DNA of 63,986 bases, filler included, from Elsinoe ampelina (taxonomy: Eukaryota), in assembly GCA_010093995.1 (NCBI GenBank). It is 4 parts of 4 records of this genome, joined end to end, with 100 filler letters (N's around TTAATTAATTAA, not from the genome) between each part and the next. Parts side by side here need not be neighbours in the genome. Positions count along the whole stretch, not along the records: positions 23,485 to 41,784 come from ML992562.1; 3 more parts are not named here. One strand, written 5' to 3'. The translations under genes were made by a program, and so were the position numbers. Below, one piece after another: positions 23,754-63,986 of this stretch (positions are counted from its first letter, which is position 1; every line of letters starts with the position of its first letter). Below the pieces are notes generated by a model that was not told the DNA's origin, ran no database searches, and saw only the letters and a program-made list of their open reading frames with translations.

Positions 23754-24788
23754 TCATATTTCTGTGAAATTGACTGTCAATCGTACCTCCGGATCGGGAT
23801 TCCAAGGATTTCTCATGCCCCTGACAAAGGAAAATGCGACCTCTGTAGCAAAAGCCTTCACGTCAGTCACGGCCTCAGGCCAGTTCTCGGACACCCACGG
23901 CGCTTCTCCGAATCCTTTGTGGTACCCTTTGACAAGCTTCAACGTCCAATAAACATGCCTGAAGCTGAACGGAGTGCGACAATCCTGGCAAACAAAGATC
24001 CCAAGCAAATGACTGGCTGTCACCCTTGCCTCCTCAGATAACACATCAATGCCGATTCCATAGCGCCCAGCCACCTGTCTTACATCAACCTGCGTACTAC
24101 CAAGGTCCCCACTCATCAGCATTGGCCTCATTTTATCCTCCAACCAATTCATCTCGTCATCGGACAAACGCTTCCTCGGCTCCTCGCCAATCCAGTATCT
24201 CATCACATCCCTCGTAATCTCCATGTCGCCCTGCGCGTCAAATCCTTGCAACACCTTCATCTGATCACCAATCGCCACTTCCAAATCCCTACTCCACACC
24301 ACGCCCGGCCGTCGCCCCCTCCAATACTCCCTGCAATCATCCGGGAACTCATCCCAAGGACACAAAGCCGGGAACGCCACTCGCTGCCTGGCATTTGGCG
24401 CCTGTCGCACTTCCTGAACAGCTTTTCGCAAAATGGCACACCAGCGTGGCAGGGCAGTGAGTTCAGGGCGACGCACTTCTCTGAAGCGGTGCGGGAAGGG
24501 GCCGTGCATGTAGTCTTCGGCGAGAGCGAGGTATTTCTCGAGGTCGCGTAGGTCGTAGAGGATAAGTTCGTCGGGGATACGGACGAGGTGGGAGATGAGG
24601 CTGAGGTTGCATCCGATGGTGTCTTCGTGGTCGGAGACGAAGGGGACGAGGTAGCGGCGGTAGCCGGAGAGGTAGTTTGGGTGAGTGATTCTTGTGCGGG
24701 TAGTGGCCAGGCTCGAGTCATTGAGCTCCAGGGTCGGGAGCGTGGTGCCTTGTGCTGCTGGCGACGCGCCGTGTTGTGGTGTGGGCAT
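23754..24788 (-). CDS. Hypothetical protein (344 aa) with 'RRYLVPF' domain, paralog A
   Basis: Long ATG-initiated ORF; about 60-aa segment similar to the ORF at 26302-26886. Confidence 0.75.
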   Translation of the reverse strand: MPTPQHGASPAAQGTTLPTLELNDSSLATTRTRITHPNYLSGYRRYLVPFVSDHEDTIGCNLSLISHLVRIPDELILYDLRDLEKYLALAEDYMHGPFPHRFREVRRPELTALPRWCAILRKAVQEVRQAPNARQRVAFPALCPWDEFPDDCREYWRGRRPGVVWSRDLEVAIGDQMKVLQGFDAQGDMEITRDVMRYWIGEEPRKRLSDDEMNWLEDKMRPMLMSGDLGSTQVDVRQVAGRYGIGIDVLSEEARVTASHLLGIFVCQDCRTPFSFRHVYWTLKLVKGYHKGFGEAPWVSENWPEAVTDVKAFATEVAFSFVRGMRNPWNPDPEVRLTVNFTEI

Positions 24789-26301
24789 GATTGAAGCTGA
24801 CTTGTGCAGAATGCTCTACTAAGCGATTTTCGAAATGTGTTGTGGTTTCACGAGTCTGGCATGGTATTTGAAGGAAGAGTTTACACGGACTCGTGGCATC
24901 TATCGTTGTGTTTGTGTGACCTTGGGAGGGCGTGGTGACACAGAGTCATGGTGTATGTGCTCACATGATCTTCGAGTCTTCGAGTCAAGAGGAGACAACC
25001 ACACTCGGCGATTCAGCAAGTGGAAGGGGAAGAATTGTCCAAAGTGATCACTTTTGGAGGGATTGGGTTCTCAGTACCTTCCGAAGGTAGTTTAACGACT
25101 GTTCTCATTGACATCGTCCGAACGAGCACAAATAATCACACACAGTAGGCTTGATGGTTGATTCGACGACGACACGACACAGATCGATTGACAAAACTTC
25201 ATCTCGTGTCTTAGCTCTACATGACTTCATGGCACGAAAGAGAATGGCTGGGACAATGCTGGTTCGGTGACCTAGCGCTGAGAATGTACAACCTAGGCGG
25301 ACTTGATCACTGGTTGAGTCCCTCATTAACTGCGATTCGCGCAACAGCAGAATATGGTATACGTCCTCAATGATGTGGTGCGCATCATGACGTGTAAGTA
25401 TTCCTCTCATGACACCTATTCCCGTCACAAACATACTTCCCAAAGCAGAACTTACTCAACAATCACGACACATCTCCCACCGAGACAACAAACTTATCGA
25501 AACTACGAGATGTCTACTCAACAAGAATCATCAAGCAAGTCTTCCCCATCAAGATATGGTGCTTCAGGTCAGATTCACACAGATTTTTTGCAATAGCGCG
25601 CTAGCAGCCAGCAGCAATCGAGTGATCTGGATCTCCTCCCTCTTCTGACGCTTTGACGGATTGGGCAGAAGAAAGCACATCTCCCTGCAGTCGGTCCTTT
25701 GAGAATTGGAGAAGATCATTCTTAACCTACAACAGGGAGGAGAGTGGGTCGACAAGCAGGATATGCGTCGAAGCTACTGATACAAATAGATCGACCATAT
25801 TCTTCCCAGGTCGTCGACTTTCTCTGCCCCTCTTTGAAGGTCAGACAGAGGAGCAGGTCAAGTTGAACTCCAGCTTGCTAAGGAACCTGATGGCGTACCA
25901 AGAAGAGCTGAGTCTGTTCTTGTCAAGTCAAATGGATCACTTTGCAGTCGTGCTATCGACCTACATTCTACCTTCTCGCTTGGAATGGGTCAAGATCATT
26001 TCTTTCTGGAAACTGCCATTTGCAAGCTGAGGGTTGCCTCGTCGGATAAACTTTCCGCCTGCTGCGCTATACGCCCTTTCGATGACTATCCAGCCGCCTG
26101 AATTGCTTTCCTCGCCCAGTGTGCTGGGGTGTCAGACCTGTCATGGAAGCATCGCATCGCGATTCACTATAGTATTCTACATTGGCGAGGACCTATTCTG
26201 GTCAATATCTCTCAGCGAACATCAAATCTTAGCACCTCGACCTGGTCATGTTCCTCGATGTTGTCTCATCTGTTCTAGAGAGATGGGCGCACACCAATCA
26301 A

Positions 26302-26886
26302 TCAGTCCACCCATCCTCTACCCGTAGACAGCATGCAATCTACCCATACGATCAGTATCCCAAAGAGTGTAAGCATACCTTTCGTCGGGCGCTCGGCTGC
26401 AGCGATCTCACTCGACGGCAGGAGATCGCTATTGGGGACGCTCTGAAGCTGGTCTCCGGCAGCCTCCTCGGAGAAGGTGACTGCTTGACTGTATTCGCTT
26501 GCAAGCTGAGCATAGCGTCTGAGATCTTGTGCGTAGAAGTGGTCAAGATCGTTGTGGTAACCCACGAGCTTGACCAGAAGGCTCAGATTAAGACCGATGA
26601 ATGTTTCGCTAGTGGAAGCGAATGGTACCAAATAGCGGCGACACGTCGTGGGATAGTGCGGCAATATAGCTTTCGCTTTGATCTGTTCGGACATTCTCTG
26701 GTTCTTGGGTCTTTCCTCCATAGGGTTTTTACCCATATCGCCGTCAGTTGGATCTGAAGAGTCTACTTTTCGGCGCTTTGGAAGAGGACTATCAAGACTC
26801 GCTGGCACGTATTTCTTTTCCAGCTCTTCTGTCGCAAGTTGTTCCTGCAGATTGTGGTAACGAGCGCTAGTTTTCCTGGGTGCCAT
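26302..26886 (-). CDS. Hypothetical protein with 'RRYLVPF' domain, paralog B (start uncertain; may be truncated or decaying)
   Basis: Part of open frame 26302-27612; plausible start MAPRKTSAR at 26886; NLS-like PKRRK; shares RRYLVPF...IGxNLSL with paralog A. Confidence 0.55.
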   Translation of the reverse strand: MAPRKTSARYHNLQEQLATEELEKKYVPASLDSPLPKRRKVDSSDPTDGDMGKNPMEERPKNQRMSEQIKAKAILPHYPTTCRRYLVPFASTSETFIGLNLSLLVKLVGYHNDLDHFYAQDLRRYAQLASEYSQAVTFSEEAAGDQLQSVPNSDLLPSSEIAAAERPTKGMLTLFGILIVWVDCMLSTGRGWVD

Positions 26887-28513
26887 AGTTGTACCGTCGT
26901 CAGAGTACTCAGCTTGAGGAGGCAACCACTCTACTTCTTCTGCTGGGCGGGAGAATGCTTGGTCCTGCCAGTGCAGGAATGTAGTCATCCATGGACTATC
27001 GATGGCGAGACTTGTGCCATGGAGTGGATCTCCGATACCGAGCTTGGATGCGATTTCAACTGTCGTCATGTGCTCCGAGGGTATGGAAGAACGCTGCTCC
27101 AGGCGGCCAGCAAATTCATGCCTGAGTACCTCCGCTAAGGGAGCTTTCGTCATAGCTCGTCTCACACGAACGGCCTGCTTGGTGGACAAACCATGATTTC
27201 GATCGGGGACTCTCCTGCTCTGTTTGAAGACCATAGGTACAAGTGAAGGGCCATCGCCTGTAAGCGCTGCGAGTACCAGGCTCCTCTCGACGTTCCAGGT
27301 GCTCGTAATACCACCTCGATGTGTCGCCGACAGTGCGGCCGTTCCAGGAGAAACTGGTACTGTACGCAGTGTGTCAGGCAGTCCAAGCTTCCGCTGTCCT
27401 TGGTGGTTGTCCAGCTGCATAACGTGATCAGTACGCACGACGTTGCGCAAGAAAATTGACGGTCTAGCGGTATAAGTGATGTAGACAGCTGTGCTGGATG
27501 TTTGTGAATTGTTGTAGTGATTGGAAATTCCTTCTCGGGCTGGCGCCTGCGACAAACGGGTTGACAGCGCTAATACGAGAGCAGTGGGGGACCGCGCAAG
27601 GCCGACGATCACATGTGCACTACCCAGCGAGAATCTTCTTCATTCAGGTTCTCCATGAATCGTCACGCAGGAACATTCGGGTTATTCCTCGTTATTTTCG
27701 AAGGGTAATGGCATGTCGCCACTCACCGCCATGTGCCATCGTGCCTGTCAGGTGCAATGAAAGCCGATCTCACCACGTTGGACGAACCGATGGATCTACT
27801 AGCACTACAGATCAAGCGGCAAGCAGTACACGGCGTAATGATCTAATTTTCACCAATTGCAGGTTTCCATGAGCAGACACTGCGGAGTGCGATATAAGCT
27901 TGGTCATACATTTTCTCGGTCCAGCCACGTTAGGACAAGAGCATGGACGCCACGATTGGTCACGCGGCATTGTTGATGAAAGAAAGATGAATCAAGACTG
28001 GAAATGGAAGCAGACGGGAAACATGGGTATGCTTTTCTCAGCTGGACCGCTGAGGTTTGCGGAGCCGCTCGGGGATCACGCCTGTCAACAGAGCAACATT
28101 AGAGCGAAGGATGCCTCGAGTGTCGTCTTTGGGGGGGAGTTCTGGTGATCAAAGGGCAAAAGAGAGGGCCTACATCTGAGGATATAACATTATGTGGAGC
28201 CAGTAGTTTACAAGATGTCTGGATCCAATGAGCGACTGCATCCTTTCCCGTAACGGGATTGGACATGACGTCAAGCAGTGGAGGATACAATTCCATACAC
28301 AAGCACACAGAAATGATGGATATGATGGGAGATTGTGGCTTGCCTGCATAGTGAAGATCAAGTGTTGTGTTGGACAAGGAAGGATCAAATTTGGTGAGCG
28401 GGGCCGAACTGGATGCTTTGTCAACATCCCAACGCATGCCACAATCTCACTGCTGCCGAGTCTCCGAGGCATTTCAATGTGAACAGCGCCATTCGCACTT
28501 CACAGCTCACACA

Positions 28514-29509
28514 ATGATCAACTTCGGCGTCATTGGGACGAATTGGATCACTGACTGGTGGATTACATCAGCTCGAGCTTCAGGTCGCTGGAAGCTCACC
28601 GCGGTTTACTCACGAACCACGGATGCGGCAACTTCATTTGCGTCCAAATATGACGTATCCACAGTCTACACATCGATAGCAGACTTGGTGGCTGACAAGA
28701 ATGTCTCTGCTGTGTACATCGCATCGCCAAACTCTTTGCACTTTGAACATGCCAAAGAGGTGTTGAACGGCAAGAAGCACGTAATCCTGGAGAAGCCGGC
28801 AACCTCAACCGTGGAGGAGCTTATACAGCTGCAAGACCTTTCCCGCAAGAACGATGTATATGTCTTGGAAGCCTATCGTCATATCCAAGAAGTCAACTTC
28901 AAGGTCCTCAAGCAAGCGCTGGAGCAAAAGAAGCTTGGTCCTATCTATGGTGCCAGCTTCACGTACGCTAGTTTCAGCTCAAGATACCACAATGTTCTTG
29001 CTGGCGAAAAGCCCAACATCTTCACCTTGGACTTCTCCGGGGGATCCCTAGTCGACATTGGCGTGTATCCAGTCACATTCGCCGTTGCGCTATTCGGCCG
29101 CCCAACGTATCAGCTCTATCATGCTACGAAGGCCCCCACTGGAGTCGATGCCGGAGGTTTCATCTTGCTACACTACGATGACTTTTCGGTACAGATCAAT
29201 CAAAGCAAAGCATGGACCTCGTCCGCACCTTGTGAGATCTACGGCGAGAAAGGCACCATCATTACCAACGGAACAGCCGACATTGACAGCGTCAAGTTCT
29301 GGAGCAACAAGACCAAAGAGACCGAAGATCTCAGTCAACCGAAGGCTGACAAGAATATGCAAGAAGAGGCCGAAGAGCTCGGACGCATCATAGAAGAGGA
29401 TGACAAGAAGGGCGCCGCAGCCCTGCAGGACTTGAGCATGGCTGTTCTCGAGATCACCACCGACTTGCGTCAACAGAACGGCATTGTCTTCAAAGTGGAG
29501 CAAAAGTAG
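28514..29509 (+). CDS. Gfo/Idh/MocA family oxidoreductase (YgjR/YulF-like), intronless
   Basis: MINFGVIGTNWIT, AVYIASPNSLH, EKP, SSRY...GEKPNIF, GGSLVDIGVY. Confidence 0.93.
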   Translation: MINFGVIGTNWITDWWITSARASGRWKLTAVYSRTTDAATSFASKYDVSTVYTSIADLVADKNVSAVYIASPNSLHFEHAKEVLNGKKHVILEKPATSTVEELIQLQDLSRKNDVYVLEAYRHIQEVNFKVLKQALEQKKLGPIYGASFTYASFSSRYHNVLAGEKPNIFTLDFSGGSLVDIGVYPVTFAVALFGRPTYQLYHATKAPTGVDAGGFILLHYDDFSVQINQSKAWTSSAPCEIYGEKGTIITNGTADIDSVKFWSNKTKETEDLSQPKADKNMQEEAEELGRIIEEDDKKGAAALQDLSMAVLEITTDLRQQNGIVFKVEQK

Positions 29510-29677
29510 TTTCGTCGATATGTATCTAATGCACAGTCCGACAACTCGGCATCCGTTACGGCTGTCGACCAAGTCGAGCCACAGTCTGTCCCGAGCTGTC
29601 CCAATGCCTTGATCCAAAGCACCATCTCAAAACCGCCCACTCAAACTCGCGCCCGCTTGCATCGGTCCAACCTGAGG

Positions 29678-30177
29678 TCAAGACGCTGTACCCATGGTCA
29701 TACGAGAGTCACGGCGACGTTCCTGCTCGGCGATCGTCCCATAACCTTTGATCGACTCATAACTATCTCGACGACTCCCCCAATCCTCCTCATCTGACCT
29801 GAAACGTGTCGGGGAGGATATTGAGCCACGTGGTGTTGGTCCTCCTGGCGCATTGCCTCCCTTTCTCATCTCCACCCACAATATCAACATCCTGTACACC
29901 ATCTGTGGCCAATCAGCACAAGTCTTATCAATCACCAGTATGTACCTACGACCAAGCTGATCACCAGAAGACAGAACATTCCCATCGAGAGGATAAGCTC
30001 CCATGCTGTGGCGTCCACCTGGCCGTATGAAGGCTCCGCTGGCACGGACTCCGATGAGGTCGGTGGGCTTGGCACGAGAGCTGACCCTGTACTCTGTAGC
30101 GGTGCAGAAGTCGGCTGTCCGTACGGCATGGCCATATGTAGAGGTGCGTTTACGACCATGAACGGAAGTGGCGCCAT
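29678..30177 (-). CDS. Small membrane-protein array gene a (150 aa, 1 TM); exons 30177-29950, 29902-29678
   Basis: GTAGGT...CTGAT...CAG phase-0 intron joins LLVISLV|MVYRMLILW; charged tail with YGTI. Confidence 0.7.
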
Positions 30178-30637
30178 GGTCGTTCTCCTTCTGCGACGGA
30201 ACTCGTCTTCTCTCCTACACTGGTCGAACTTTGCTGGCTGTCTTGGTCACTGCAGCAAATCACTGGGCGTTTGCATCCGACATACAAACGATGTTGGAAG
30301 AAGGAGGCATGGCGAGGATCGACGGATTTTTGAGGCCACATCGCGATTCATCGAAATTCGCACAGTGTGAACTCTGTCCGGTAGTGTATCCACCCCGGAT
30401 CATACCGAGCAAAAGCATGAGGCCGCGACGCTACCAGAATGGGAGGTAGCGTCTCAACGTGGAGAGTCATGATCTGCGAGATCACTGGCTGGTGGAGATG
30501 TCGAACGTCTCAAAACTCATTCCGGCATTCGTACGTGCGGCTCTACTGCTTGCTACTCTACCGTGAAGGTGCCCTTTGGAGACCGCCATCTCCGGACAAG
30601 CTGGACCACGCTCGCTTTGCTTTCAGCCACGGTGTTC

Positions 30638-31126
30638 TCAATTGTCAGCTTCGCTAGTTTGCCTCTCCGATCTCCCCTCAGGCTCGACCTCAGCCTGGTT
30701 TTGCGTCATCCTATCCTCCAGCTGTTCCACAACCCCAGCAATAAAGCCCGGCATGCTAAAAGCAAACATGACCATGAGCATCAACCCCTCGACACGCTCA
30801 CGTGGAGATCGCTCTTTGAAATCCTTGAGGTCCCCGAAGATCAGATTTGTGGCCATGAAGAGGATTGTAGTTCCGGTGGCTATCATGCAGCATAATCTGC
30901 CTCCGGCTCTGAAGTTCTCAATCTCTCGCTTTCGCTCTTGATTACGCTCGAGTTGCCGTTCGTGTCGGACGATGGCCCTCATTTCTTGCCTATGATTTGT
31001 TATGCTAGGTCGGTTCGGCTCCGCAGAGAGAGCGGGGGCGGTGTTGATCTGGGCTGAAGCCTCCTTCAGGATTGAGCTGTATGGTGGAGCTTCATCTGGT
31101 ACTGGCCTGTAGGGATTATCCATCAT
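30638..31126 (-). CDS. Small membrane-protein array gene b (162 aa, 2 TM, intronless)
   Basis: ATG 31126; APPY motif, charged helix, two hydrophobic segments; TATAAA about 110 bp upstream. Confidence 0.7.
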   Translation of the reverse strand: MMDNPYRPVPDEAPPYSSILKEASAQINTAPALSAEPNRPSITNHRQEMRAIVRHERQLERNQERKREIENFRAGGRLCCMIATGTTILFMATNLIFGDLKDFKERSPRERVEGLMLMVMFAFSMPGFIAGVVEQLEDRMTQNQAEVEPEGRSERQTSEADN

Positions 31127-31681
31127 ATTGTGTGGTTGTCTCTGAAAAACGATCGTGTTCTGAGATGTCACGATATTCTTGACTGGATGTGCACTTTCTT
31201 GGTTGGGCTTGGACGCAGCCCCATACGCAACAGCTTTATATCATTCCTCGCTTCGACTATCTGTCCTCCTGAATTTCTTGCACATCATGAGTCACGACTC
31301 AGAGTTGCTGCTCGAGCATTCTGGAAGCCGCGAGATGGTTTCAAGGTGCTATGAATTGTATTACACGAGTGCTGCATCTCTCCATGCACCATCTGTCCCA
31401 GCGAATCACGAAATTGGTCGTTGGAACAAGAGGCAGTCTCAAGAGCTCTAGGAAACGATCGATGGCTTACATACCACCACTAGTTTCTAGTCTGGAAATG
31501 GAAACTCAAATTACAAAAGAAGCTGTGGACCAAATTTGCTGGATCGAGGGATCTCGAATGATCCCGTCGTGGAGATTTTCCAAACAATCAAATCGGCGCT
31601 GCTCCTGTTCCTGCTTCTGCTCCTGGGACCAATCCTTCCATTCTACATCATATCCGTCGTGGTTTTACAGAGCCTCGTGTC

Positions 31682-32402
31682 TCACACTAGCGGCCATGCA
31701 GTCGCAGGCGGTGCACTGATCTCTGTGGGGTCGTAATCGATGCTGCGTAATTCGATGTCGGAGCCGCCGATACCTGAAGATCCAGGCCTACGAATAGGAT
31801 GGATATCGCCTCGCAGACGCTCCTGGCGTGCCTCATGCTCCTGGATTCTCACCTGTCGTCTCCTCTCCTTCGCCGCGCTCCTCGAGAAACATCCTTTGAT
31901 GCAATACACCAAGTGTGCGGCAACAGCGATTAAGATCAACTAAGATGGTCAGCTTCTTCCCCCCTAATTGATGCGCAGACGGCACACTCACCAGGACAAA
32001 ACCGGCACCCATAATTATAGCTTCTATCACAAGGGCAAAACTCAACCGATTCTCAAGCTTTTCTGCTGTGGCGTCGTCTTTGGCGAAAGCTATGGGACCT
32101 AGGAATGCCATACCAGTCAGGGAGATGAGGCCACCGAACAGGGCCATGTCAAGCAACATTGAGAATCCGACGCATCTCCTAATTTGCTTCTTGGACTCGC
32201 GCCGGCGAGTGCGACTTTGGACGTATTCGATGTCTCGCCAGAGACTGTCTGATATAGGAGATGGGCGTGGCGTTGAGGTCGTGGTTGGGCGTGGTGCAGT
32301 AGCGCTGGCGTAAGATGGGAGGACGGTGCTAGCCTGTGACATGTTGGATGCTCTGGAGGGTGCCTTGGTGAATACCTTGGGCAGGGTGGGCGACATGGTC
32401 AT
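31682..32402 (-). CDS. Small membrane-protein array gene c (222 aa, 2 TM); exons 32402-31992, 31939-31682
   Basis: LPSY motif; GTGAGT...CTGAC...TAG phase-0 intron joins GAGFVL|LILIAVAA; charged tail. Confidence 0.78.
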
Positions 32403-32761
32403 GGTTTGTGTGTGTGGTATGCTGGGTCTGTTGAGAATGGATTCCGAATCGTGAGTTGAAGAGTGCTTTGAATGAAGGAAGGAGACAGAGAGGGAAGGTA
32501 TTTATGTTGCATCTCTTCACTTGCTATTTGCCTTCCTTGCACCCCAAGCGTTCTTTTGGTCTTATCCGGAACTCTAATAAAGCCCGGGATGAATTTCTGG
32601 TATCTTCGCAAGGAGAATCATTGCACATCCGCAGGACCCTGAAGCTTACACCTGTCTACGAGACATTATCTTGTGGTGTGCCTCAGCCCACGTCGCCGTC
32701 CATCCCACACATCAAGCTTGACTCCCCATAGCACGGCTCCACAAAGCAAGCCTTGCTACCG

Positions 32762-33055
32762 CTACAGACCAACCCTCACTCCATCTATGTGCGGATTTAC
32801 CTCTTGCATATAGACTAAGATGGTATGATGCCAATAGGCCTATGCTACATTAGCCTCCGCACGAGTCATCGAAGAACCGCCACTTACCGGAAAGACCAAT
32901 ATGTGATGAAGGATATACAGCGCCACCAGAGCGCCGAAGCAGAGTATTATGTTCGGTATAAAGTGCTCGACAATCAGCTGTCGTAGGCTGAGCGAATCTC
33001 GTCCATGGTAGTAGAACAGGAGACAGAAAGCCGGCAGGCAGAAGATCAGAATCAT
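32762..33055 (-). CDS. Small membrane-protein array gene d (about 81 aa, 2 hydrophobic segments); exons 33055-32888, 32839-32762; N-terminus uncertain
   Basis: GTAAGT...CTAAT...TAG phase-0 intron immediately after LYILHHILVFP. Confidence 0.5.
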
Positions 33056-33224
33056 GGTGTGGTGTGAGGTAGAAGGCGGACAGCTTCGCAAGAATGTATG
33101 GCAGTGCTATGGCTTTGCAAGAGGACATTGAAGTGATTATGAGGGAAGTAGGGTAGGTCTTTCTTCATTGCAGAGATTTTCTACCATTTCTTCTTCTCCA
33201 ACAGATTCGTAGTCTACCAACCTT

Positions 33225-33858
33225 CTAGGCCACTTCGGCGACGTCCTCCCAGTCCGCCTCATCACTCTCTGAGGACTTGTGGATCTGAGTCTCCTGCTTC
33301 TGGATCTCATCCCCATAACTACCTTCGTTCTGAGCTACCACCACAACCTGACCTTCTCTCTCTTGAGTCGTCTTCTTCTGCATCTTCACGTGAGCTGCCT
33401 TCTCAACCCTCTTCCGAGCCACTTTTGCCTTCAAAGCTCGAGTCTTCTCATCAACCGCATCATCAATCTCCCACTGGCACCTCCCCGTGAACTGTCATAA
33501 TCAGCAAATTCTTCCAACTCCAATGGACTACCATACTCACCACGAATATCCAGAAATACCATAACCACACCGCGCCGGTGGCCAGAAACGTACACACCAT
33601 GAGAAGTGGCCACGCGATGCAAATCACACTCCAAGAGGCAGAGAAGAGCTGCCATGTAAAGCCGGAAGCTGCCTGTGTCGCCGTGTAGATATTGTGAAAG
33701 AGAGGTCCATAGAACGATACGGCGTTGTCGATGTGCTCCTCCATCGGGAGGGGTTCGAAGGTGATGAGAACCCTTAAAGCGCCGACCACAGACGAGATCA
33801 TGAGTTCGGTGGCGAGCAGGTCGCGGATGAAGAGGCGGGTGGAACGGGCGGTGGGCAT
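33225..33858 (-). CDS. Small membrane-protein array gene e (194 aa, 2-3 TM); exons 33858-33541, 33491-33225
   Basis: GTGAGT...CTGAT...CAG phase-0 intron joins WYFWIFV|FTGRCQW into ORF 33225-33434; K/E-rich tail. Confidence 0.78.
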
Positions 33859-34197
33859 TTTGGGTGCTGTGGGGATGGTTACTGGTTGGATAGGGTGATG
33901 ATGGGATCGAACGTTGGTGGGTCCAAGTGCTGATCCAAGGGTAGCTGGTCGGATCAATCGCTGTAGGTTCTAGTGCGGGTGGGATGTAGACGAGTGAGGG
34001 AGTAAGGACGATAGAAAAGAGGGATATAGGTGAGGAGCGAAGTGCGATTTTGTCGGTGGGCGAGATGAAGGATAAGTTTTTACTATGGAGCAAAGCAATG
34101 TCTGCTCACTCCACATGTGGTGGAGACTACAAGTAAGTTACACCCTATCTCTTCTAGCTTGGAGACTCAATTCGTGGAGTCAATATCCGACACGTTT

Positions 34198-34700
34198 TCA
34201 ATTCTCTAGTTGCACGGCCCGGAGAAAATATTCTTGACGGTAAGTACAAGGATGCCCCGTTGCCTTGCGGGCCATGGCCACCTCATCACTCCTCTGCCTC
34301 TCGTCTGGTAGACCAAGCGTTGAGCTCCTAGCATAAGTTTTCTTCCACCTCTCCCACCAGACTTTCATGCCCGTCTTCCCTGTACTCGACACCGACACTC
34401 CACCGTTTTCCTAGTCCCCTTGCAATAATCCTTCCCTTACCGCTGCCAACCCGCAAACACCAGAAGCACACAAGAAATAGCATTAAGAATCCCAGGAAGG
34501 TCACGAAGCCATGCCCGGCCATGAGTCCGTGGGTCTTTATCCTCTGCGAGGTCGAGCTGAATCAAAGCTTGGGTGACTTGGTAGATGCTGTTTGCGAGAT
34601 CCAAGGCGATGAAGAAGACAAAGGCGGCGAGGAGAGTGAGGAGGAGTGGCACGATGGCCTGTAATAGCGGACGGCGGAAGGGGAGATTGGCAAAGAGCAT
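34198..34700 (-). CDS. Small membrane-protein array gene f (2 TM); structure ambiguous, possibly a frameshifted pseudogene
   Basis: Strong TM1 in ORF 34437-34700; a better TM2 (GFVTFLGFLMLFLVCFWCL) lies in a shifted frame; GTAAGG donor at about 34440. Confidence 0.5.
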
Positions 34701-35090
34701 CTTAGTCGAGCTCGGAGACTGCAGATATTTGTAAAATCGATTGAGGAATAGTGCCGGTCCTTGAGGGATGACTGTTGTGGAGGGATCTTGAAGGGGACAC
34801 AGGGTGAGATGTGTGTATAGTATGATCAGAGGAGATGAGAGTCGTAGACCGTATCATGGTTTAGACTGGGACAAAAGTAAGTCACTCTTGGAAAGAAGAG
34901 ATGTGAGAGTTCGATGGGTGCGGACGGCTGGCTTTGCTTTTACCGCCTTCAATGCTTTTACTGGAGAAGAAGTTCTGATTGGGAGAGCCTACGGAGGTTG
35001 ACCTGATAAATTTGTCATTTCACCTCGAAAGATTCTGCCTGATGAAGGACCGTAGAATGAAGTCCGGTGCCCTGAAGGCGTCCTCTTACC

Positions 35091-35551
35091 CTAGACTGCA
35101 GAATCAGCACTCGCCGCCTGCCTAGGAGCAGTCGCTGCAGCTGGCGGAGCAGTCGCCGCAGCTTGCCGAGCAGTCAAAGGCTGCGCTTCCTCCTCCTTCA
35201 CCGCAGATGCCACCGCGTTCAAGGTGACGCCGGACTGAAAGGTCAGTCAGCCTCATTGTCCTTGCTTGCAGCTGGGAGCAGACTTACCGCGACGATCATC
35301 AGCATGGTACATCCCGCGAAAAAGGCCCATAGAGTTGTTGCGAACTGAAGAGTGTCGAGCCATATGTCGGGGTATTTGAACTGGATGGCGTCGCTGAACA
35401 ACCAGAGGACCGCGGCGATGTAGGTGCTGATTATGAGTCCGAAGACGATGGAGAAGAAGAGGAGGACTAGACAGGTTACAAAAGCCGCAGAAGTGGAAAG
35501 TTCTGGCGGCGCGGTGCGTTGGGCAGAAGGTTGCTCTGTGGTGGATGACAT
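35091..35551 (-). CDS. Small membrane-protein array gene g (135 aa, 2 TM); exons 35551-35288, 35234-35091
   Basis: GTAAGT...CTGAC...CAG phase-0 intron directly after TM2 (TMLMIVA|SGVTL); Ala-rich tail. Confidence 0.78.
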
Positions 35552-35767
35552 GTTGTTGAAGTGGTTAACGATCGGCTGATGTGTTGTTCAGTGTGCTGGT
35601 ACGATCGTGGTGCACACGAAGAGATGGTGATTAATAAGGGAACGAAGGGTGACGATTAGACGAAGTCAATAGACAAGGTTCACAAGTATATCGTAGAGTT
35701 TTGCAGATTTGTCGAAGATGCTTGCTTCTGCCGCGACCATCTGGCGCTTGATGGAAGAAGCGATGTA

Positions 35768-36135
35768 TCACACATCTCCGCCTTGCTGCCACCAGCGGTA
35801 CCATGCGGGAATCCATTTGGCGAGCGCCTATGACAGTCAGTCGATATCGGCCACTTCGATAGTTGGAGTACTACCACTGGTAGTAAGCAGACGACGCCAT
35901 AGAAGAAAGCCTCTGTCGTGATCAAGAGATCGCAGAGGGTAGACTGATTGCCGAAATTCAGATTCAGCCTGCCAGTTGACTCGTCTTGAATGACATCTCG
36001 GAAGATGATGAACATCATGGATGCTGAGGTGATGAAGTAGAAAGTGAAGGCGGACAGGATCATGAAAGTGGCCCCTCTGTAGAACATTGTACCAATGTCT
36101 TTCGCAATGTCGGTCAAAAATGCCATGGCGCCCAT
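35768..36135 (-). CDS. Small membrane-protein array gene h (about 106 aa, 2 TM); exons 36135-35875, 35827-35768
   Basis: Two TM segments; GTAGTA...CTGAC...TAG phase-0 intron after VVCLLPV (donor weaker than consensus). Confidence 0.6.
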
Positions 36136-36454
36136 TGTTTCTGGCTGTCTCTTCCTTGATGGTGGATGCAGGTCTGAGAGATAGGAACATACAAGAAGCA
36201 AAGGCAACGTTGTTTTCTATACTTGATTGATTCGCTGCTCCATCGGCGAAATGAAACACCGGCTGGGGATAGGCTAGTGAAAAGGGTGAATACCTTATCA
36301 AGTGGCCTCCCCACAATGAGACAATATTGCTGTGAACAAATAGCGGAATTCGGATATAAATGCTTACCTAGATGGTAGTGATCATTCCCCCGTTATGCAT
36401 CCGGCAAATCTCCTCCATGTTGAATTAGCATGGATCGTCCAGTCGTTTGACACT

Positions 36455-38178
36455 TCATGACGATTCCCACGGCAGTCCAAATGTACCGACCCAGTCCTCA
36501 ACCTCATGTCGAAGTCCGACAATCTCGGTGACGTTTTGACCATCGCCGACAAACTCGTTGAAGCCCTTGACGGTCAGAGACTTCTTTCCTTCACTCTTTG
36601 CCTTCTCGGTGCCCTTCGCGTCCAATGTCTTTGCGATCTCCACTGCTCTGTGTACCACGTCGGCGACTCGCTTGAAGTCATCCTCGTGCAGTCCACGAGT
36701 GGTCATTGCAGGCGTGCCCATTCTCAGTCCACCAGGCTTCATGGCGCTCTTGTCTTCAGGTACGGTATTCTTGTTAGCAGCAACGCCAACCAGCTCGAGG
36801 ATACGCTCGACCCTGGCGCCGTCTATCGATCGATCCTTGAGATCGATGAGAACGAGATGGTTGTCGGTACCGCCAGAGACAATGTTGTATCCAAGACCAC
36901 CAGAGGTCTTTGCGTCACCCAGCCGTGATGCGAGAGCCTTTGCATTCAGGAGCACCTGCTTCTGATAGTCCTTGAACTCTTGACTTTGTGCTTGCTGCAA
37001 CGCGACTGCCAGGGCAGTAATGGTATGGTTGTGGGGTCCACCTTGGTGACCGGGAAAGACGGAGGAGTTGATAGGCTCCTCGAGGTTGTACAGCACCTCG
37101 TTGCCCTTCTTATCGACACTGCGCACACCCTTGCGGAAGAAGATCATGGCTCCACGAGGGCCACGTAACGACTTGTGAGTGGTTGTCGTGACAATGTCTG
37201 CATGTGGGAACGGAGATGGGATCACACCACCAGCAACAAGACCGGAGATATGGGCCATGTCAGCAAGCAGGTATGCTCCAATGTTGTTGGCAATCTTGCG
37301 CATGCGAGTGTAGTCAATCAGTCGCGAGTATGCAGAAGTACCAGCAATGATGATCTTCGGGCGGTAGAGTGTTGCGTGCTCTTCGAGCTTGTCATAGTCG
37401 ATCAGACCCGTCTTCTCGTCCAATCTGTAAGGGAATGTCTCAAAGTACTTTGAGATGGCCGAGATCTTCTTGGTGGGTGTTTGATAGCCGTGAGATAAGT
37501 GTCCTCCGTGGGGCAGATCCAAGCCCATGATCCGATCATGAGCGTTCAAGACGGCCGAGTATGCGTAAAGATTGGCAGGTGAGCCAGAGAGGGCTGCCCG
37601 GAAGTCAGATGTGTCCCTCGACAGCCTGCTCTGGCATATGCATACCTTGCACATTGACACCCCATTCTGCCGGGTTGAGGCCGAATGTCTGCAGAGCCCG
37701 CTCTTGACATAGTCTCTCGGCTTGGTCAATGTACTCGTTTCCACCGTAATATCTTGCGCCGGGGTAGCCTTCGGAGTACTTGTCTGCAGCACGTCTTAGC
37801 ATACTGTATGGGAACCTCGCCAGGAGCTGCCCTACTCTGCATCACACTGCCGAGAGCCTCGAGTACGGCCTGCGACGTAAAGTTCTCGGAAGGAATGAGG
37901 TTGATAAAGTGCTTCTGCCGTCTCTTTTCGCGCTCGATGATCTGGAAGATTGCTGGATCCGAGTTCTCGAGGTTCGATGCCAGGAGCTAGAGCTACAGTC
38001 AGTAAACACTCAGCCATGCAAGTCATGTAGCTCATCCCACCTTGTGTTGCTGGTCCGTCGACATTGCCCGCCGCCACTTTTGTGCTTGAGCATATCGACA
38101 CGTCTGCAGAATAGGTCGGCTAGCTGGCGTAGCTACCAGTGTAACGCTCTTCCCGAGAGCTTTCCTGGCCGACGACAT
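36455..38178 (-). CDS. SHM1: Serine hydroxymethyltransferase, mitochondrial (multi-exon)
   Basis: [39 protein letters not shown] site [12 protein letters not shown]; Arg/Ala-rich presequence in exon 38178-38041. Confidence 0.95.
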
Positions 38179-39549
38179 GTTGGCAAATCGAGACTTTGCA
38201 CAGTCAACAGCAGCGATATTATGGAGAGGTGTTGTATCTTGTTTGAACCCCGTCGGCTGCCGTCGGGATACTCGATACCGTCGAGGCAAGAAATTCCCCG
38301 ACCACCCAACTGGGACTAGCTTCGGGATGTCGGCCTTTGCCGCGTGAAGCGACGGTGAGCTCTTTCACGCGTTTGCCCATCGCTCTCTCTCCCTCTTTCT
38401 TCTTCACACAACTAAATCCAAGATGATGAGCTGGCTTGTATGGCAGACGAACGTCACTCGACTGGCTTCACGCTGGTATCGATGTGGTTGTTGTTGCTAC
38501 GCTCAGAGCCCACCGAACCACCTTTGAATGGGCGACGAGACCTTCTGATTGGAATCGCGTTGTGTACTAGGGCAGTCGTGCAGCTGTTACGCGTGGCGGA
38601 CGACATCTGGCCTCATTCGAGGCGTATTCATCCATCGATTGACGAATTACCTTTGGCGACACACCCAATTCTGCAGGTGATCCTTCGTTGGATGCCGGCC
38701 AAGGCGGAAATGGCAGAAGGAGACCCTTTTCTGACTCAACGGATGATTGACACTGACGCTGCTTCCGTACCAGCCAGACGAGGCAAACACAGACTTTTTT
38801 TTCCACTCCGGCGGATATACGCCGACTTGATGTCGCTGTTCGGCATGCTCGTCCGACCGAGGATGGCATGGCATGCTCAGGCCTGCGTAAGCCTCGCAAG
38901 GACGTCCAGGAACGCTTTCTTGTCACCGTCGAATACTTCCGGTTGCGGTATCAAAACGGCTCCAGATTAAGACAAAGCTTTACGGGCACCACCCAAGACG
39001 GTCGAGATTCCAATCGGTGCAGCAAAAAAAAAACTTAGGGCAATATTGTCAGTGCTGCATCACCGACAGCTAGCCCTGCACTTGTTACTGGCATTGACCC
39101 TGAAGGACAAGGGTAAGACTAAACGCTGAACATTAAGTTACCTGTACATCAGACCCTGTCTTTACCATCTGCGCCCGCGAGCTGTTAAAAATCCTACCTT
39201 ACCGCACCCTTCTTATTTTTGGCCCTCTTCTTTCTTTCCGCCCCGTTCGAAATACTAATTACGGCTTCTTTATCGAGACTATCAGGAGTCGTTGTCGGCA
39301 GCTTTGACAATCATCTGTACCTTGCATTCTGAGGCTCTTCCGGCTTTTTTTTTTATCCCCGCAAAACTCGCATAGGTTGACCGTGATCGACAACTATTGC
39401 AAATCACTCCAAATCAATTGCAAGAGTACCCGACCTCGCCTGAAATTCATCATCATCTGGCCTTGTTGCTCGTCAACTATCTTCGGCTTGAATAATAACT
39501 ACATGTGCTGCAAGACTTAGCCGTTCCCTCGAGATTGAGATAACACGCT

Positions 39550-60169: not shown

Positions 60170-61514
60170 TCGTCTAGGTATATAATATAGTAGTAGTCTA
60201 CTAAGCTACTTAAGTACTAATATATATAAGTCTAGAATATAGCTAGGGCATTAGTAAGGCTAAAAGGTATAATAGTATATTTAAAGTAGCTATAGTAATA
60301 GTAGAACGCTATCTTCTATTTATTACTATACTAGATATATACTCTATAGTAGGTATCTATAAGGTCTAGCTTACTAAATAAGTATACATCCTCGATGTAA
60401 TTAAGTATCTTAGCAATTAGAGGTAAGAGGTAATAGTTCTTAATAGTAACATTATTTAGCCTATAATAGTTAATATATAGGCGTAGCGAACTATTCTTCT
60501 TAGGAACGAATAGAATAGGAGACTCTATAGAGCTAGTACTATACTAGAGTTAACTCGTTACTAAGCTATTATCTATATACTCTCGAAGTACCTAAAGCTC
60601 CTTTTCACCGAGGGGGTAGATAGGTCCCTAGGGTAGCTATTTCTCCTCTTTAATATTAATAGAGTAAGTAAAATTGTTACTTAGTAGCGCTATTACTACG
60701 CTCTTATTAAAAACATCTACGTAGTTGTTAAGCTAGTATAGTAGAGTTAGAGTGCTAGGTTCGTTCTAGCGTATATATACTAGGTAGAGCTAGGCGTTAG
60801 GCTAATTTAGCTTCTAGAAGAAGGAGAGTATATCTAGAATTAACACCTATATAGCGCTAGTATAATGCCTCTATATACTAGTACTCTACTAAATCTTAGA
60901 GTTATAGAATAATAGCTATAGTAGGCCTAATATAAGATTATAACTAGTTATATTAACGCTTTTAAACTACTAGCGTAACACCTACATTATTTCTTTACTA
61001 TTCTTAATAGCAAAGGCTAACTTAGTATATCTATAGGTAGTTAATTCGTATTTGTCTAAGCTATGTACTTAGTATACTACTAGGGGGTTAATAGCGATAT
61101 AATAGCGTATAGTAAAATACTAGCTAATAAAGTTACTATCGGCGCTACTATCTATTAGAGCTATCTCTTTAATAGGGCCCTTAGGTAGGTTAACTATAAT
61201 ATTAGTGCGAATTTAGTATATATTCTACATCGCGCTAGAGCTACTTAAAATTAGTAAATATAAGAACACTATCTATTTTAAAGAGTTCTTCTAGAGATAG
61301 TTCGGCGCCTAATAGTCTAGGCTCTTATAGATATTATAAAAGTAAGTAGCGCTAGGTTAGAGAGCTATAAGAGTAGCGTTAGCGCTACTCTACTAGTCCT
61401 TTTAGCTCTTATAGTCTTCGTTATAGTAAGGCCTTTTAGTAAAAGTATTAGTCTTCTCTCTAGCGTTATGCTTATACTACCTCTATATAGAGTTAAAGTA
61501 GCCTAGTAGGTTCT
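60170..61514 (-). mobile_element. RIP-mutated Ty3/gypsy element, copy A (gag C-terminus, protease, RT N-terminal half)
   Basis: Reverse complement of 62642-63986 with no net indel, differing by transitions at the sites checked. Confidence 0.9.
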
Positions 61515-61712
61515 TATAAGGACCGACGTAGTAAGTATACTACGCTAGCTTACTCTAGAGATACTATTCTCTATAGGAGAATAAAACACTCCTCGCCTAT
61601 AGAATAGATAGAGTAGAGATTAGTCTTACGACAATCGAGGGTATACTAGTATAATACCTATTCTACTCCTATATACTTGTCTTTCTAGCTCTAATATTCT
61701 ACCTTCGTTACA
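61515..61712 (+). repeat. 5' LTR of gypsy copy B (198 bp)
   Basis: Starts TATAA (RIP form of TGTAA) exactly where the inverted match to copy A stops; ends TTACA; followed by PBS and gag. Confidence 0.75.
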
Positions 61713-63986
61713 ATTCTAATCTCTCTTATATTCTATTAGATAGAGCTATATAGATAAGATAGCACCCCGTACTTAGCGCTAGCGAAACGACTAACTACCG
61801 CTAGAGTAGCACTAGTATAGACAACTCCCTAATAGCTTAGCTATTAGTAAGACATTTACTAAATTAGCTATAACTCTAGAGATAACCCCTATTAAAGATC
61901 GCTAGGCCGGGGAAGAGCTAGCGCTAAGACTATACTACGCTAATATAGCTCCTATAGAAAGTATAGCTAACATAGGAAATAATGCTATATATAAAGCGCT
62001 TCTTACTTATATTACTTAGCTTAAGAATACACTTAGTAGTCGCTCCCTAGTTATAGCACTAGTGCTACGTAGTTGTTTCGATAATGTATAACCTAATAAC
62101 ATCTACCTAATAAACCTACAAATTGTAAGAGAGTATATACTAAACTTATACTACCCCGAGGCCTTAGAGTCTACTATTATAGTAAGAGTTAAGGAATTTA
62201 TACATATATATAATAATGTCTTTAAGATAGTACTAAATATCTACTTTAAAGAAGTTACTTAGTGCTATATAGCTACTAGCTACTTAAAAGGTTAGCTTAG
62301 CTATAATTAGGACTTATATACTAAGAGCGCTAGCGTTATACCCTTATAGAGCCTAATATAGTTCTAGCTTTAGAACTAAGCCTAGAGTTCTAAAAACTAT
62401 AGTAATAGCTACGTAGTAAAGTTCTTTACGTTGCACTAGCGTAGAGAATAGTTAATTACTAATTTCTATATATTCCTCGATAGTTACGAGTTCTATATTA
62501 AGATAGCGCTACTCCCGGACAATGCCTACTATATATAGCTTATCGCCTATACTATACTAGAGCTACGCTCGAAAGTACTCTATTAGGGGAACCTACCCCT
62601 AATTAAGGTAGAACTCCTAGTACATCTATCCTGTTTAGAGTAGAACCTACCGGGCTACTCTAACTCTATATAGGGGTAGTATAAGCGCAACGCTAGAGAG
62701 AAGACTAATACTTTTACTAAAAGGCCTTACTATAACGAAGACTATAAGGGCCGAAAGGACTAGTAGAGTAGCGCTAATACTACCCCTATAGCTCCCTAAC
62801 CTAGCGCTACTTACCCTTATAACATCTATAAGAGCCTAGACTATTAGGCGCTAAACTATCCCTAGAAGGACTCTTTAAAACGAATAGTGTCCTTATATTT
62901 ACTAATTCTAAGTAGCTCTAGCGTAATATAGAATATATACTAAATTTACACCGACGTTGTAGTTAACCTACCTAAAGGCCCTATCGAAGAGGTAGCTCTA
63001 ATAGATAGTAGCGCTAATAGTAACTTTATTAGCTAGTATTTTGCTATACGCTATTATATCGCTATTAACCCCCTAGTAGTATACTAAGTACACGGCTTAG
63101 ATAAACACGAATTAACTACCTATAGATATACTAAGTTAGCCTTTACTATTAAGGATAGTAAAGGAATAACGTAGGCGTCGCGCTAGTAGTTTAAAAGCGT
63201 TAATATAACTAGTTATAATCTTATATTAGGCCTACTATAGCTATTATTCTATAACTCTAAGATTTAGTAGAGTACTAGTATATAGAGGCATTATACTAGC
63301 GCTATATAGGTGTTAATTCTAGATATACTCTCCTTCTTCTAGAAGCTAAATTAGCCTAACGCCTAGCTCTACCTAGTATATATATACTAAGACAAACCTA
63401 GCGCCCTAACTCTACTATACTAGCTTAATAACTATATAGACGTTTTTAATAAGAGTATAGTAATAGTACTACTAAGTAACGATTTTACTTACTCTATCGA
63501 TATTAAAGAGAGGAAATAGCTACTCTAGGGACCTATCTACCCCCTTAATAAGAAGGAGCTTTAGGTACTTCGAGAGTATATAGATAATAGCTTAGTAACA
63601 AGTTAACTCTAGTATAGCACTAGCTCTATAGAGTCTTCTATTCTGTTTATTCCTAAGAAGAATAGTTTACTACGCCTATATATTAACTATTATAGGCTAA
63701 ATAATATTACTATTAAGAACTATTACCTCTTACCTCTAATTGCTAAGATACTTAATTATATTAAGGGCATATACTTATTTAGTAAGCTAGACCTTATAGA
63801 TATCTACTATAGAGTATATATCTAGTATAGCGATAAATAGAAGATAGTATTCTACTGTCGCTATAGCTACTTTAAATATACTATTATACCTTTTAGCCTT
63901 ACTAATGCCCTAGCTATATTCTAGACTTATATATATTAGTACTTAAGTAGCTTAGTAGACTACTACTATATTATATACCTAGACGA
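61515..63986 (+). mobile_element. RIP-mutated Ty3/gypsy element, copy B: 5' LTR, gag, protease, RT to window end
   Basis: De-RIPed motifs: CX2CX4HX4C at 62818-62859, protease ALIDS(G)A at 62995, RT GPIYPL, LF(V)PKK, FSKLDL, PF(G)LTNA, and YLD(D) at 63976-63986; many TAG/TAA stops. Confidence 0.93.

Follow-up and report, generated by a model that had tools for sequence, protein, structure and literature searches.

Eight adjacent small membrane-protein genes of Elsinoe ampelina, six with an intron in the last helix, show no detectable sequence similarity to one another

When neighbouring genes have a common layout and no recognisable similarity in sequence, do they descend from one gene or were they born separately? 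We addressed this question in a 63,986-nucleotide stretch assembled from four parts of the Elsinoe ampelina genome (GCA_010093995.1), hereafter the window, in which eight short genes, here called a to h, stand in a row at positions 29678-36135, within the part taken from ML992562.1. The region is single-copy in the 28.3-Mb genome. The array is real and, as far as the literature was searched, undescribed: nothing on this locus was found, most subscription journals lying outside the reach of the search. With a probability of about 60%, we read the array as a tandem family of long standing that encodes membrane proteins of the helical-hairpin type and whose members are now stable single copies, mostly off in the sampled conditions.

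The initial annotation had described eight short minus-strand genes about 0.8 kb apart, encoding one to three transmembrane helices and carrying six phase-0 introns at the last helix, and this description holds. Eight open reading frames (ORFs) of 81-222 residues occupy the places assigned to them over 6.46 kb, all adjacent and all on the minus strand, with start-to-start distances of 584-1276 bp (mean 851). Two hydrophobic blocks are present in seven genes and one in a. All six introns (a, c, d, e, g and h) are 47-53 nt long, conform to GT...CTRAY...YAG and are in phase 0. The junction falls within the last hydrophobic block in every intron gene, and in, or at most five residues from, a window with a Kyte-Doolittle value of at least 1.6; random placement within the six proteins would produce this with a probability of 1e-5 to 2.5e-5. 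A pattern derived post hoc from the six introns themselves recovered six distinct minus-strand introns against 0.39 expected, and none of 500 Markov-1 resamples reached six. Using a looser pattern, a phase-0 intron at a helix, we recovered the six array loci, no further locus elsewhere in the window, and three loci in a background made up of 20 other stretches of the same genome (400 kb of strand-bases); all three lie in larger genes and none in a small one. These chance figures are somewhat generous because the tests were made on a pattern that had already caught the eye.

The initial annotation had also suggested fast evolution and recognised no family, and our comparisons agree on both counts. 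Pfam returned nothing near cut-off for 12 full-length proteins of seven genes and exon 1 of d. Mixed-alignment searches, combining four genes each and directed at annotated proteins only, yielded 8 of 1633 and 4 of 332 candidates that were the genes' own proteins and Elsinoe batatas orthologues, giving one orthologue each for a, b, c, e, g and h (Table 1). Exon 2 is kept in the spliced frame in all five orthologues of intron genes, and the public E. ampelina models agree with the spliced forms of a, c, e and g. The six orthologues and the SHMT and RAD14 genes of E. batatas all lie on a contig of the same size, on which gene order is not readable. Identity to E. batatas is 73-86% across the array (pooled 739/939), compared with 477/483 (98.8%) for SHMT and 357/368 (97%) for RAD14, the two control genes that make up this rate comparison. 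Differences are rarer in the hydrophobic blocks (57/348) than elsewhere (143/591; Fisher p 0.005). All eight genes occur in the genome as single copies, h having been searched through its orthologue and d through exon 1. Our best reading of the genes today, held at the same probability as the old tandem family and jointly with it, is that they are stable single copies on which purifying selection acts weakly, and most of all in the helices.

Extrapolation of the measured rate puts the identity expected in E. fawcettii at about 40%, in E. australis at 25% and in Myriangium at 10%, figures that are arithmetic on a noisy clock; at the Myriangium distance, old duplicates would therefore be unrecognisable. 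A HMMER search of 1.84 billion representatives, covering a and c only through a two-gene profile that retains about 65-80% of the score, found only the two clusters already retrieved and one repeat artefact. This artefact, the third match of the profile (P0141, E 4e-4), is a hydrophobic repeat protein and was dropped. The ESM Atlas yielded no usable match for c or the h orthologue (best feature score 0.83), and metagenome contigs carrying SHMT gave 26 loci, none near-identical. At present sensitivity, the array appears restricted to two Elsinoe species.

A role in drive, toxin/antidote action or non-self recognition had been proposed at the outset, and it finds no support here because the genes show no copy turnover and their contig carries no HET gene. 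A membrane toxin/antidote, spore-killer or allorecognition locus would have a counterpart in the wtf killers, which are likewise small, fast-evolving membrane proteins (PMC5478263), and little is known of sexual reproduction in E. ampelina (PMC8295512). From such a locus one would expect turnover of copies, repeats, HET genes nearby or deep polymorphism, and none is seen, the polymorphism data being thin. The eight single-copy genes, six with one E. batatas orthologue each, form an array without repeats or a signature of repeat-induced point mutation (RIP). Their helices are more conserved than their tails, the HET-domain matches fall on four other contigs, and neither a HET nor an HMG gene is present on the array contig. 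Where contigs of another strain cover g and h, thinly, they depart from the window at one site only. We regard a conflict locus as very unlikely.

Several observations weigh against our preferred reading. In all-vs-all hhalign comparison, the best probability among the 28 pairs was 1.15%; no peak appeared at the junction-anchored register, and the best z against a local-shuffle null was 2.33 among the 28 pairs. The search of 1.84 billion representatives brought up no relative of c or of a from E. fawcettii, though about 40% identity would be expected, and here missing annotation and real absence are indistinguishable. The E. batatas models may be projections from E. ampelina. The mixed-alignment searches found no orthologue of d or f, nor a public model of d; d is also unspliced in a contig of run X1, and f has no intron. 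Finally, a contig of run X1 (28199-33405) traverses the introns of a, c and d unspliced, and a 245-nt piece of run X2, from a second study, crosses the a intron unspliced.

The initial annotation had itself noted the lack of primary-sequence similarity, and all 28 pairs are negative by local alignment, hhalign, junction-anchored register and locally shuffled nulls. The g-c pair reached a z of 3.96 with full shuffles, but this signal sits on Ala/Pro-rich ends. Intron position and phase are shared by six of the eight genes, with no residue-level register seen in the comparison. Structure models of c (helices at residues 50-105 and 112-181; predicted local distance difference test, pLDDT, 59) and of the h orthologue (helices at 3-54 and 61-105; pLDDT 71) each come out as a single long hairpin of two helices, the second of which contains the junction; confidence is low, and the alignments used have two rows. 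These two folded members of the eight are generic hairpins (predicted TM-scores 0.30 and 0.48), and neither matches the PDB at E<=0.001 by Foldseek. The proposal of an old tandem family that kept its topology and intron position therefore stands in part: it explains the architecture with the fewest assumptions, whereas sequence, profile and junction-anchored comparisons give it no support. Since no test finds similarity between the genes, we infer their common ancestry from architecture, at the probability given above.

The same negative comparisons would be expected if the eight were unrelated orphans of separate origin that had gathered in one fast-evolving interval, de novo birth from T-rich DNA being one such origin, and their layout reflected convergence or local bias. 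Separate births would fit the absence of similarity in 28 of 28 pairs once composition is allowed for, and the differences in length, helix number and tails among the members. There are precedents: Neurospora clusters of six and ten single-copy, lineage-specific genes without mutual similarity are described (PMC11628664), and the emergence of yeast de novo membrane genes from T-rich DNA is reported (PMC12684174). However, separate births leave three things unexplained: the phase-0 intron that six genes have in their last helix (1e-5), the orientation of all eight genes on one strand, and the absence of such small genes from the 400-kb background. We consider separate births unlikely.

Transcript evidence came from contigs of four of the five public runs listed, presumed to be RNA and giving no strand. 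The predicted splicing of the six introns is borne out for two of them: the g intron is excised exactly in X1 and X2, and the h intron is excised in X1 and X5, in each case in two different studies, whereas a, c and d are crossed by unspliced contigs and the e junction has no piece among those listed. The three SHMT introns are spliced in all four runs. The long unspliced X1 contig takes in sequence of the convergent Gfo gene without a break, runs 3.9 kb into the array and passes over every intergenic gap, and 25500-28084 is almost without contig cover; for these reasons we prefer antisense read-through, and the contig over a to d is possibly one long antisense transcript from the Gfo gene. 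With strandless contigs, it may also represent DNA in the run.

These unspliced forms could also be taken as a switch, in which intron retention yields a protein ending 5-64 residues past the junction in a different tail and stage-specific splicing adds the conserved tail; function would then have preserved the intron position. Retention would give tails of 5, 14, 15, 25, 52 and 64 residues, and a, c and d are unspliced, a in two studies, in runs that show g, h and SHMT spliced. For a Gfo-continuous contig crossing every gap, however, the simpler explanation is antisense read-through, or else the presence of DNA in the run, and we hold a retention switch to be very unlikely. An extended version, equally unlikely in our view, would place the array in a much older fungal family of hairpin proteins recognisable by architecture only. 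The helix-2 intron would have persisted there for the sake of stage-specific splicing, which would exchange the cytosolic tail and so activate inert truncated forms in the course of sexual or spore development. At the other end of the array (34961-37990), SHMT, h and g are joined in one spliced X1 contig, and the ends of g contigs from two studies, at 34973 and 34961, are no more than 12 nt apart. Read-through from SHMT to a terminator after g is possible, and transcription of g and h may come partly from this source.

The weak members of the array are d and f, d being the weakest. The order of public accession numbers would leave slots for b, f and h and none for d. Gene f is covered by an unspliced X1 contig (34202-34954), and at its stop codon region (34380-34440, minus strand) a donor-like GTAAGG stands where the second hydrophobic block ends. 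A 61-nt phase-2 intron at this end, which would append an acidic 16-residue tail, was rejected, as it lacks a branch site and X1 shows it unspliced; the end of f is perhaps a decayed intron. Across the array, read-through of the stop codons would add 1-33 residues per gene, with no sign of an editing-type extension.

Under our preferred reading of one old tandem family, the ancestor would have been a gene for a small helical-hairpin membrane protein with a phase-0 intron in its second helix. Its tandem copies would have diverged past recognition, with b and f now without the intron and a down to one hydrophobic block. Each protein may insert as a hairpin with both ends cytosolic, exon 2 supplying the last part of helix 2 together with a polar tail peculiar to each protein. 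The motifs LPSY (c), APPY (b) and EPSY (a), which lie in Pro/Ser-rich heads, are retained in all three E. batatas orthologues. Together with YGTI they presumably resemble Rsp5-binding and vacuolar sorting motifs, LPSY alone fitting the strict pattern, and this resemblance leads us to guess that the PY-like and YGT motifs of a, b and c direct sorting via an Rsp5/endosome-vacuole route and that the proteins are small endomembrane adaptors or cargo. Since spliced transcripts in the sampled runs were seen for g and h only, the other genes may act in an unsampled stage, sexual or spore. We offer this mechanism tentatively and think it rather doubtful.

Evidence for joint control of the genes is slight. 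No 6-8-mer survived correction for the number of words tested as a shared promoter word. CAAAG, which we take to be an HMG-type core, occurs 50-75 nt upstream of four of the eight starts and of 6 of 82 background ORF starts (p about 0.002-0.005, with word and window chosen post hoc), a weak hint of HMG-type control. Among nine HMG-box matches, none lies on the array contig.

Table 1. Genes of the array, their Elsinoe batatas orthologues and the flanking genes; all introns listed are in phase 0
Feature	Position	Strand	Product	Intron	Public E. ampelina model	E. batatas orthologue	Identical residues	Exon 2 identical
Gfo/Idh/MocA oxidoreductase	28436..29509	+	Pfam PF01408, E 1.6e-26; convergent with a					
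a	29678..30177	-	150 aa; EPSY in the head, a single hydrophobic block of 33 aa, YGTI in the tail	29949-29903, after aa 76	P0127 (identical)	P0128	129/150	68/74
b	30638..31126	-	162 aa; APPY in the head, two hydrophobic blocks, tail acidic	none	P0121 (identical)	P0125	98/134	
c	31682..32402	-	222 aa; Pro/Ser head with LPSY, hairpin, charged tail	31991-31940, after aa 137	P0122 (from second Met, 220 aa, otherwise equal to spliced c)	P0123	177/220	69/85
d	32762..33055	-	81 aa	32887-32840, after aa 56				
e	33225..33858	-	194 aa; two hydrophobic blocks, charged tail	33540-33492, after aa 106	P0124 (identical)	P0126	142/194	61/88
f	34437..34700	-	87 aa; two hydrophobic blocks	none	P0129 (identical)			
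g	35091..35551	-	135 aa; two hydrophobic blocks, Ala/Pro tail	35287-35235, after aa 88	P0130 (identical)	P0132	102/135	31/47
h	35768..36135	-	106 aa; helical hairpin	35874-35828, after aa 87		P0131	91/106	17/19
SHMT, last exon	36455..37593	-	Pfam PF00464, E 1.3e-154; upstream of h, same orientation					

Housekeeping genes flank the array on both sides, as identified by Pfam (Table 1). SHMT is 96% identical to its E. fawcettii counterpart; between 36587 and 37378, four SHMT sites are not as in the window in three runs, three of these sites being residue-changing by our reading, which is many for so conserved a gene. Divergent from SHMT, a 176-residue ORF without a Pfam match (38440-38970, plus strand) is covered by contigs of all four runs. 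Beyond the Gfo gene, two co-oriented minus-strand orphans of 344 and 372 residues (23754-24788 and 26302-27420), also without Pfam matches, have in common a 57-residue block with 46% identity (E 2e-11) and are a separate tandem pair, barely covered by run contigs. After the last gap of the window, an AT-rich block (60170-63986), with G+C down to 30-35%, has probably been altered by RIP.

The array matters for the origin of fungal orphan genes, by de novo birth or by divergence. Intron position and topology would preserve a trace of common origin after sequence similarity is lost, so that eight apparent orphans may be one old family, and architecture would offer a way of finding such families. 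In Elsinoe, the array is a single deletable block of 6.5 kb for testing a role in the poorly known sexual stage. The reach of the finding is limited, since the genes have no assigned function and no relatives beyond two species.

Among known systems, the DUP240 tandem family and the small PY-motif membrane proteins Sna3, Bsd2 and Rcr1 of budding yeast are similar in form, with two-helix membrane proteins in tandem rows and Pro-rich cytosolic ends that carry PY motifs. The array genes have no Pfam match near cut-off to DUP240 or Pmp3/Sna3 types, and DUP240 copies can be aligned with one another whereas the array genes cannot. Lineage-specific clusters with a common helix-plus-intron layout have reportedly been noted in Pezizomycotina, which would lower the novelty of the array; our searches did not retrieve such a report. 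The wtf genes of Schizosaccharomyces pombe also encode fast-evolving, lineage-restricted membrane proteins and contain introns. They are recognisably related, dispersed, divided into five or six exons, flanked by long terminal repeats and equipped with two start sites (PMC5478263), traits not seen in the Elsinoe array, which has no or one intron per gene, no repeat and no Pfam match above cut-off.

The nearest described case is the Neurospora cluster of single-copy, lineage-specific genes. Genes around Neurospora NCU05805, presumably the SHMT gene, are mostly old and lend no support to an orphan row there. The N. crassa clusters NCU06896-06902 and NCU07144-07152 are likewise rows of small, lineage-restricted genes without mutual similarity (PMC11628664, PMC10684091). 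The Neurospora pattern is one of linkage to HET genes or chromosome ends, whereas the Elsinoe array stands among housekeeping genes in a genome with four HET matches, none on its contig. The word "transmembrane" is absent from the main texts of both papers; the Elsinoe genes, in contrast, share a membrane topology and, in six of eight, a phase-0 intron in the last helix.

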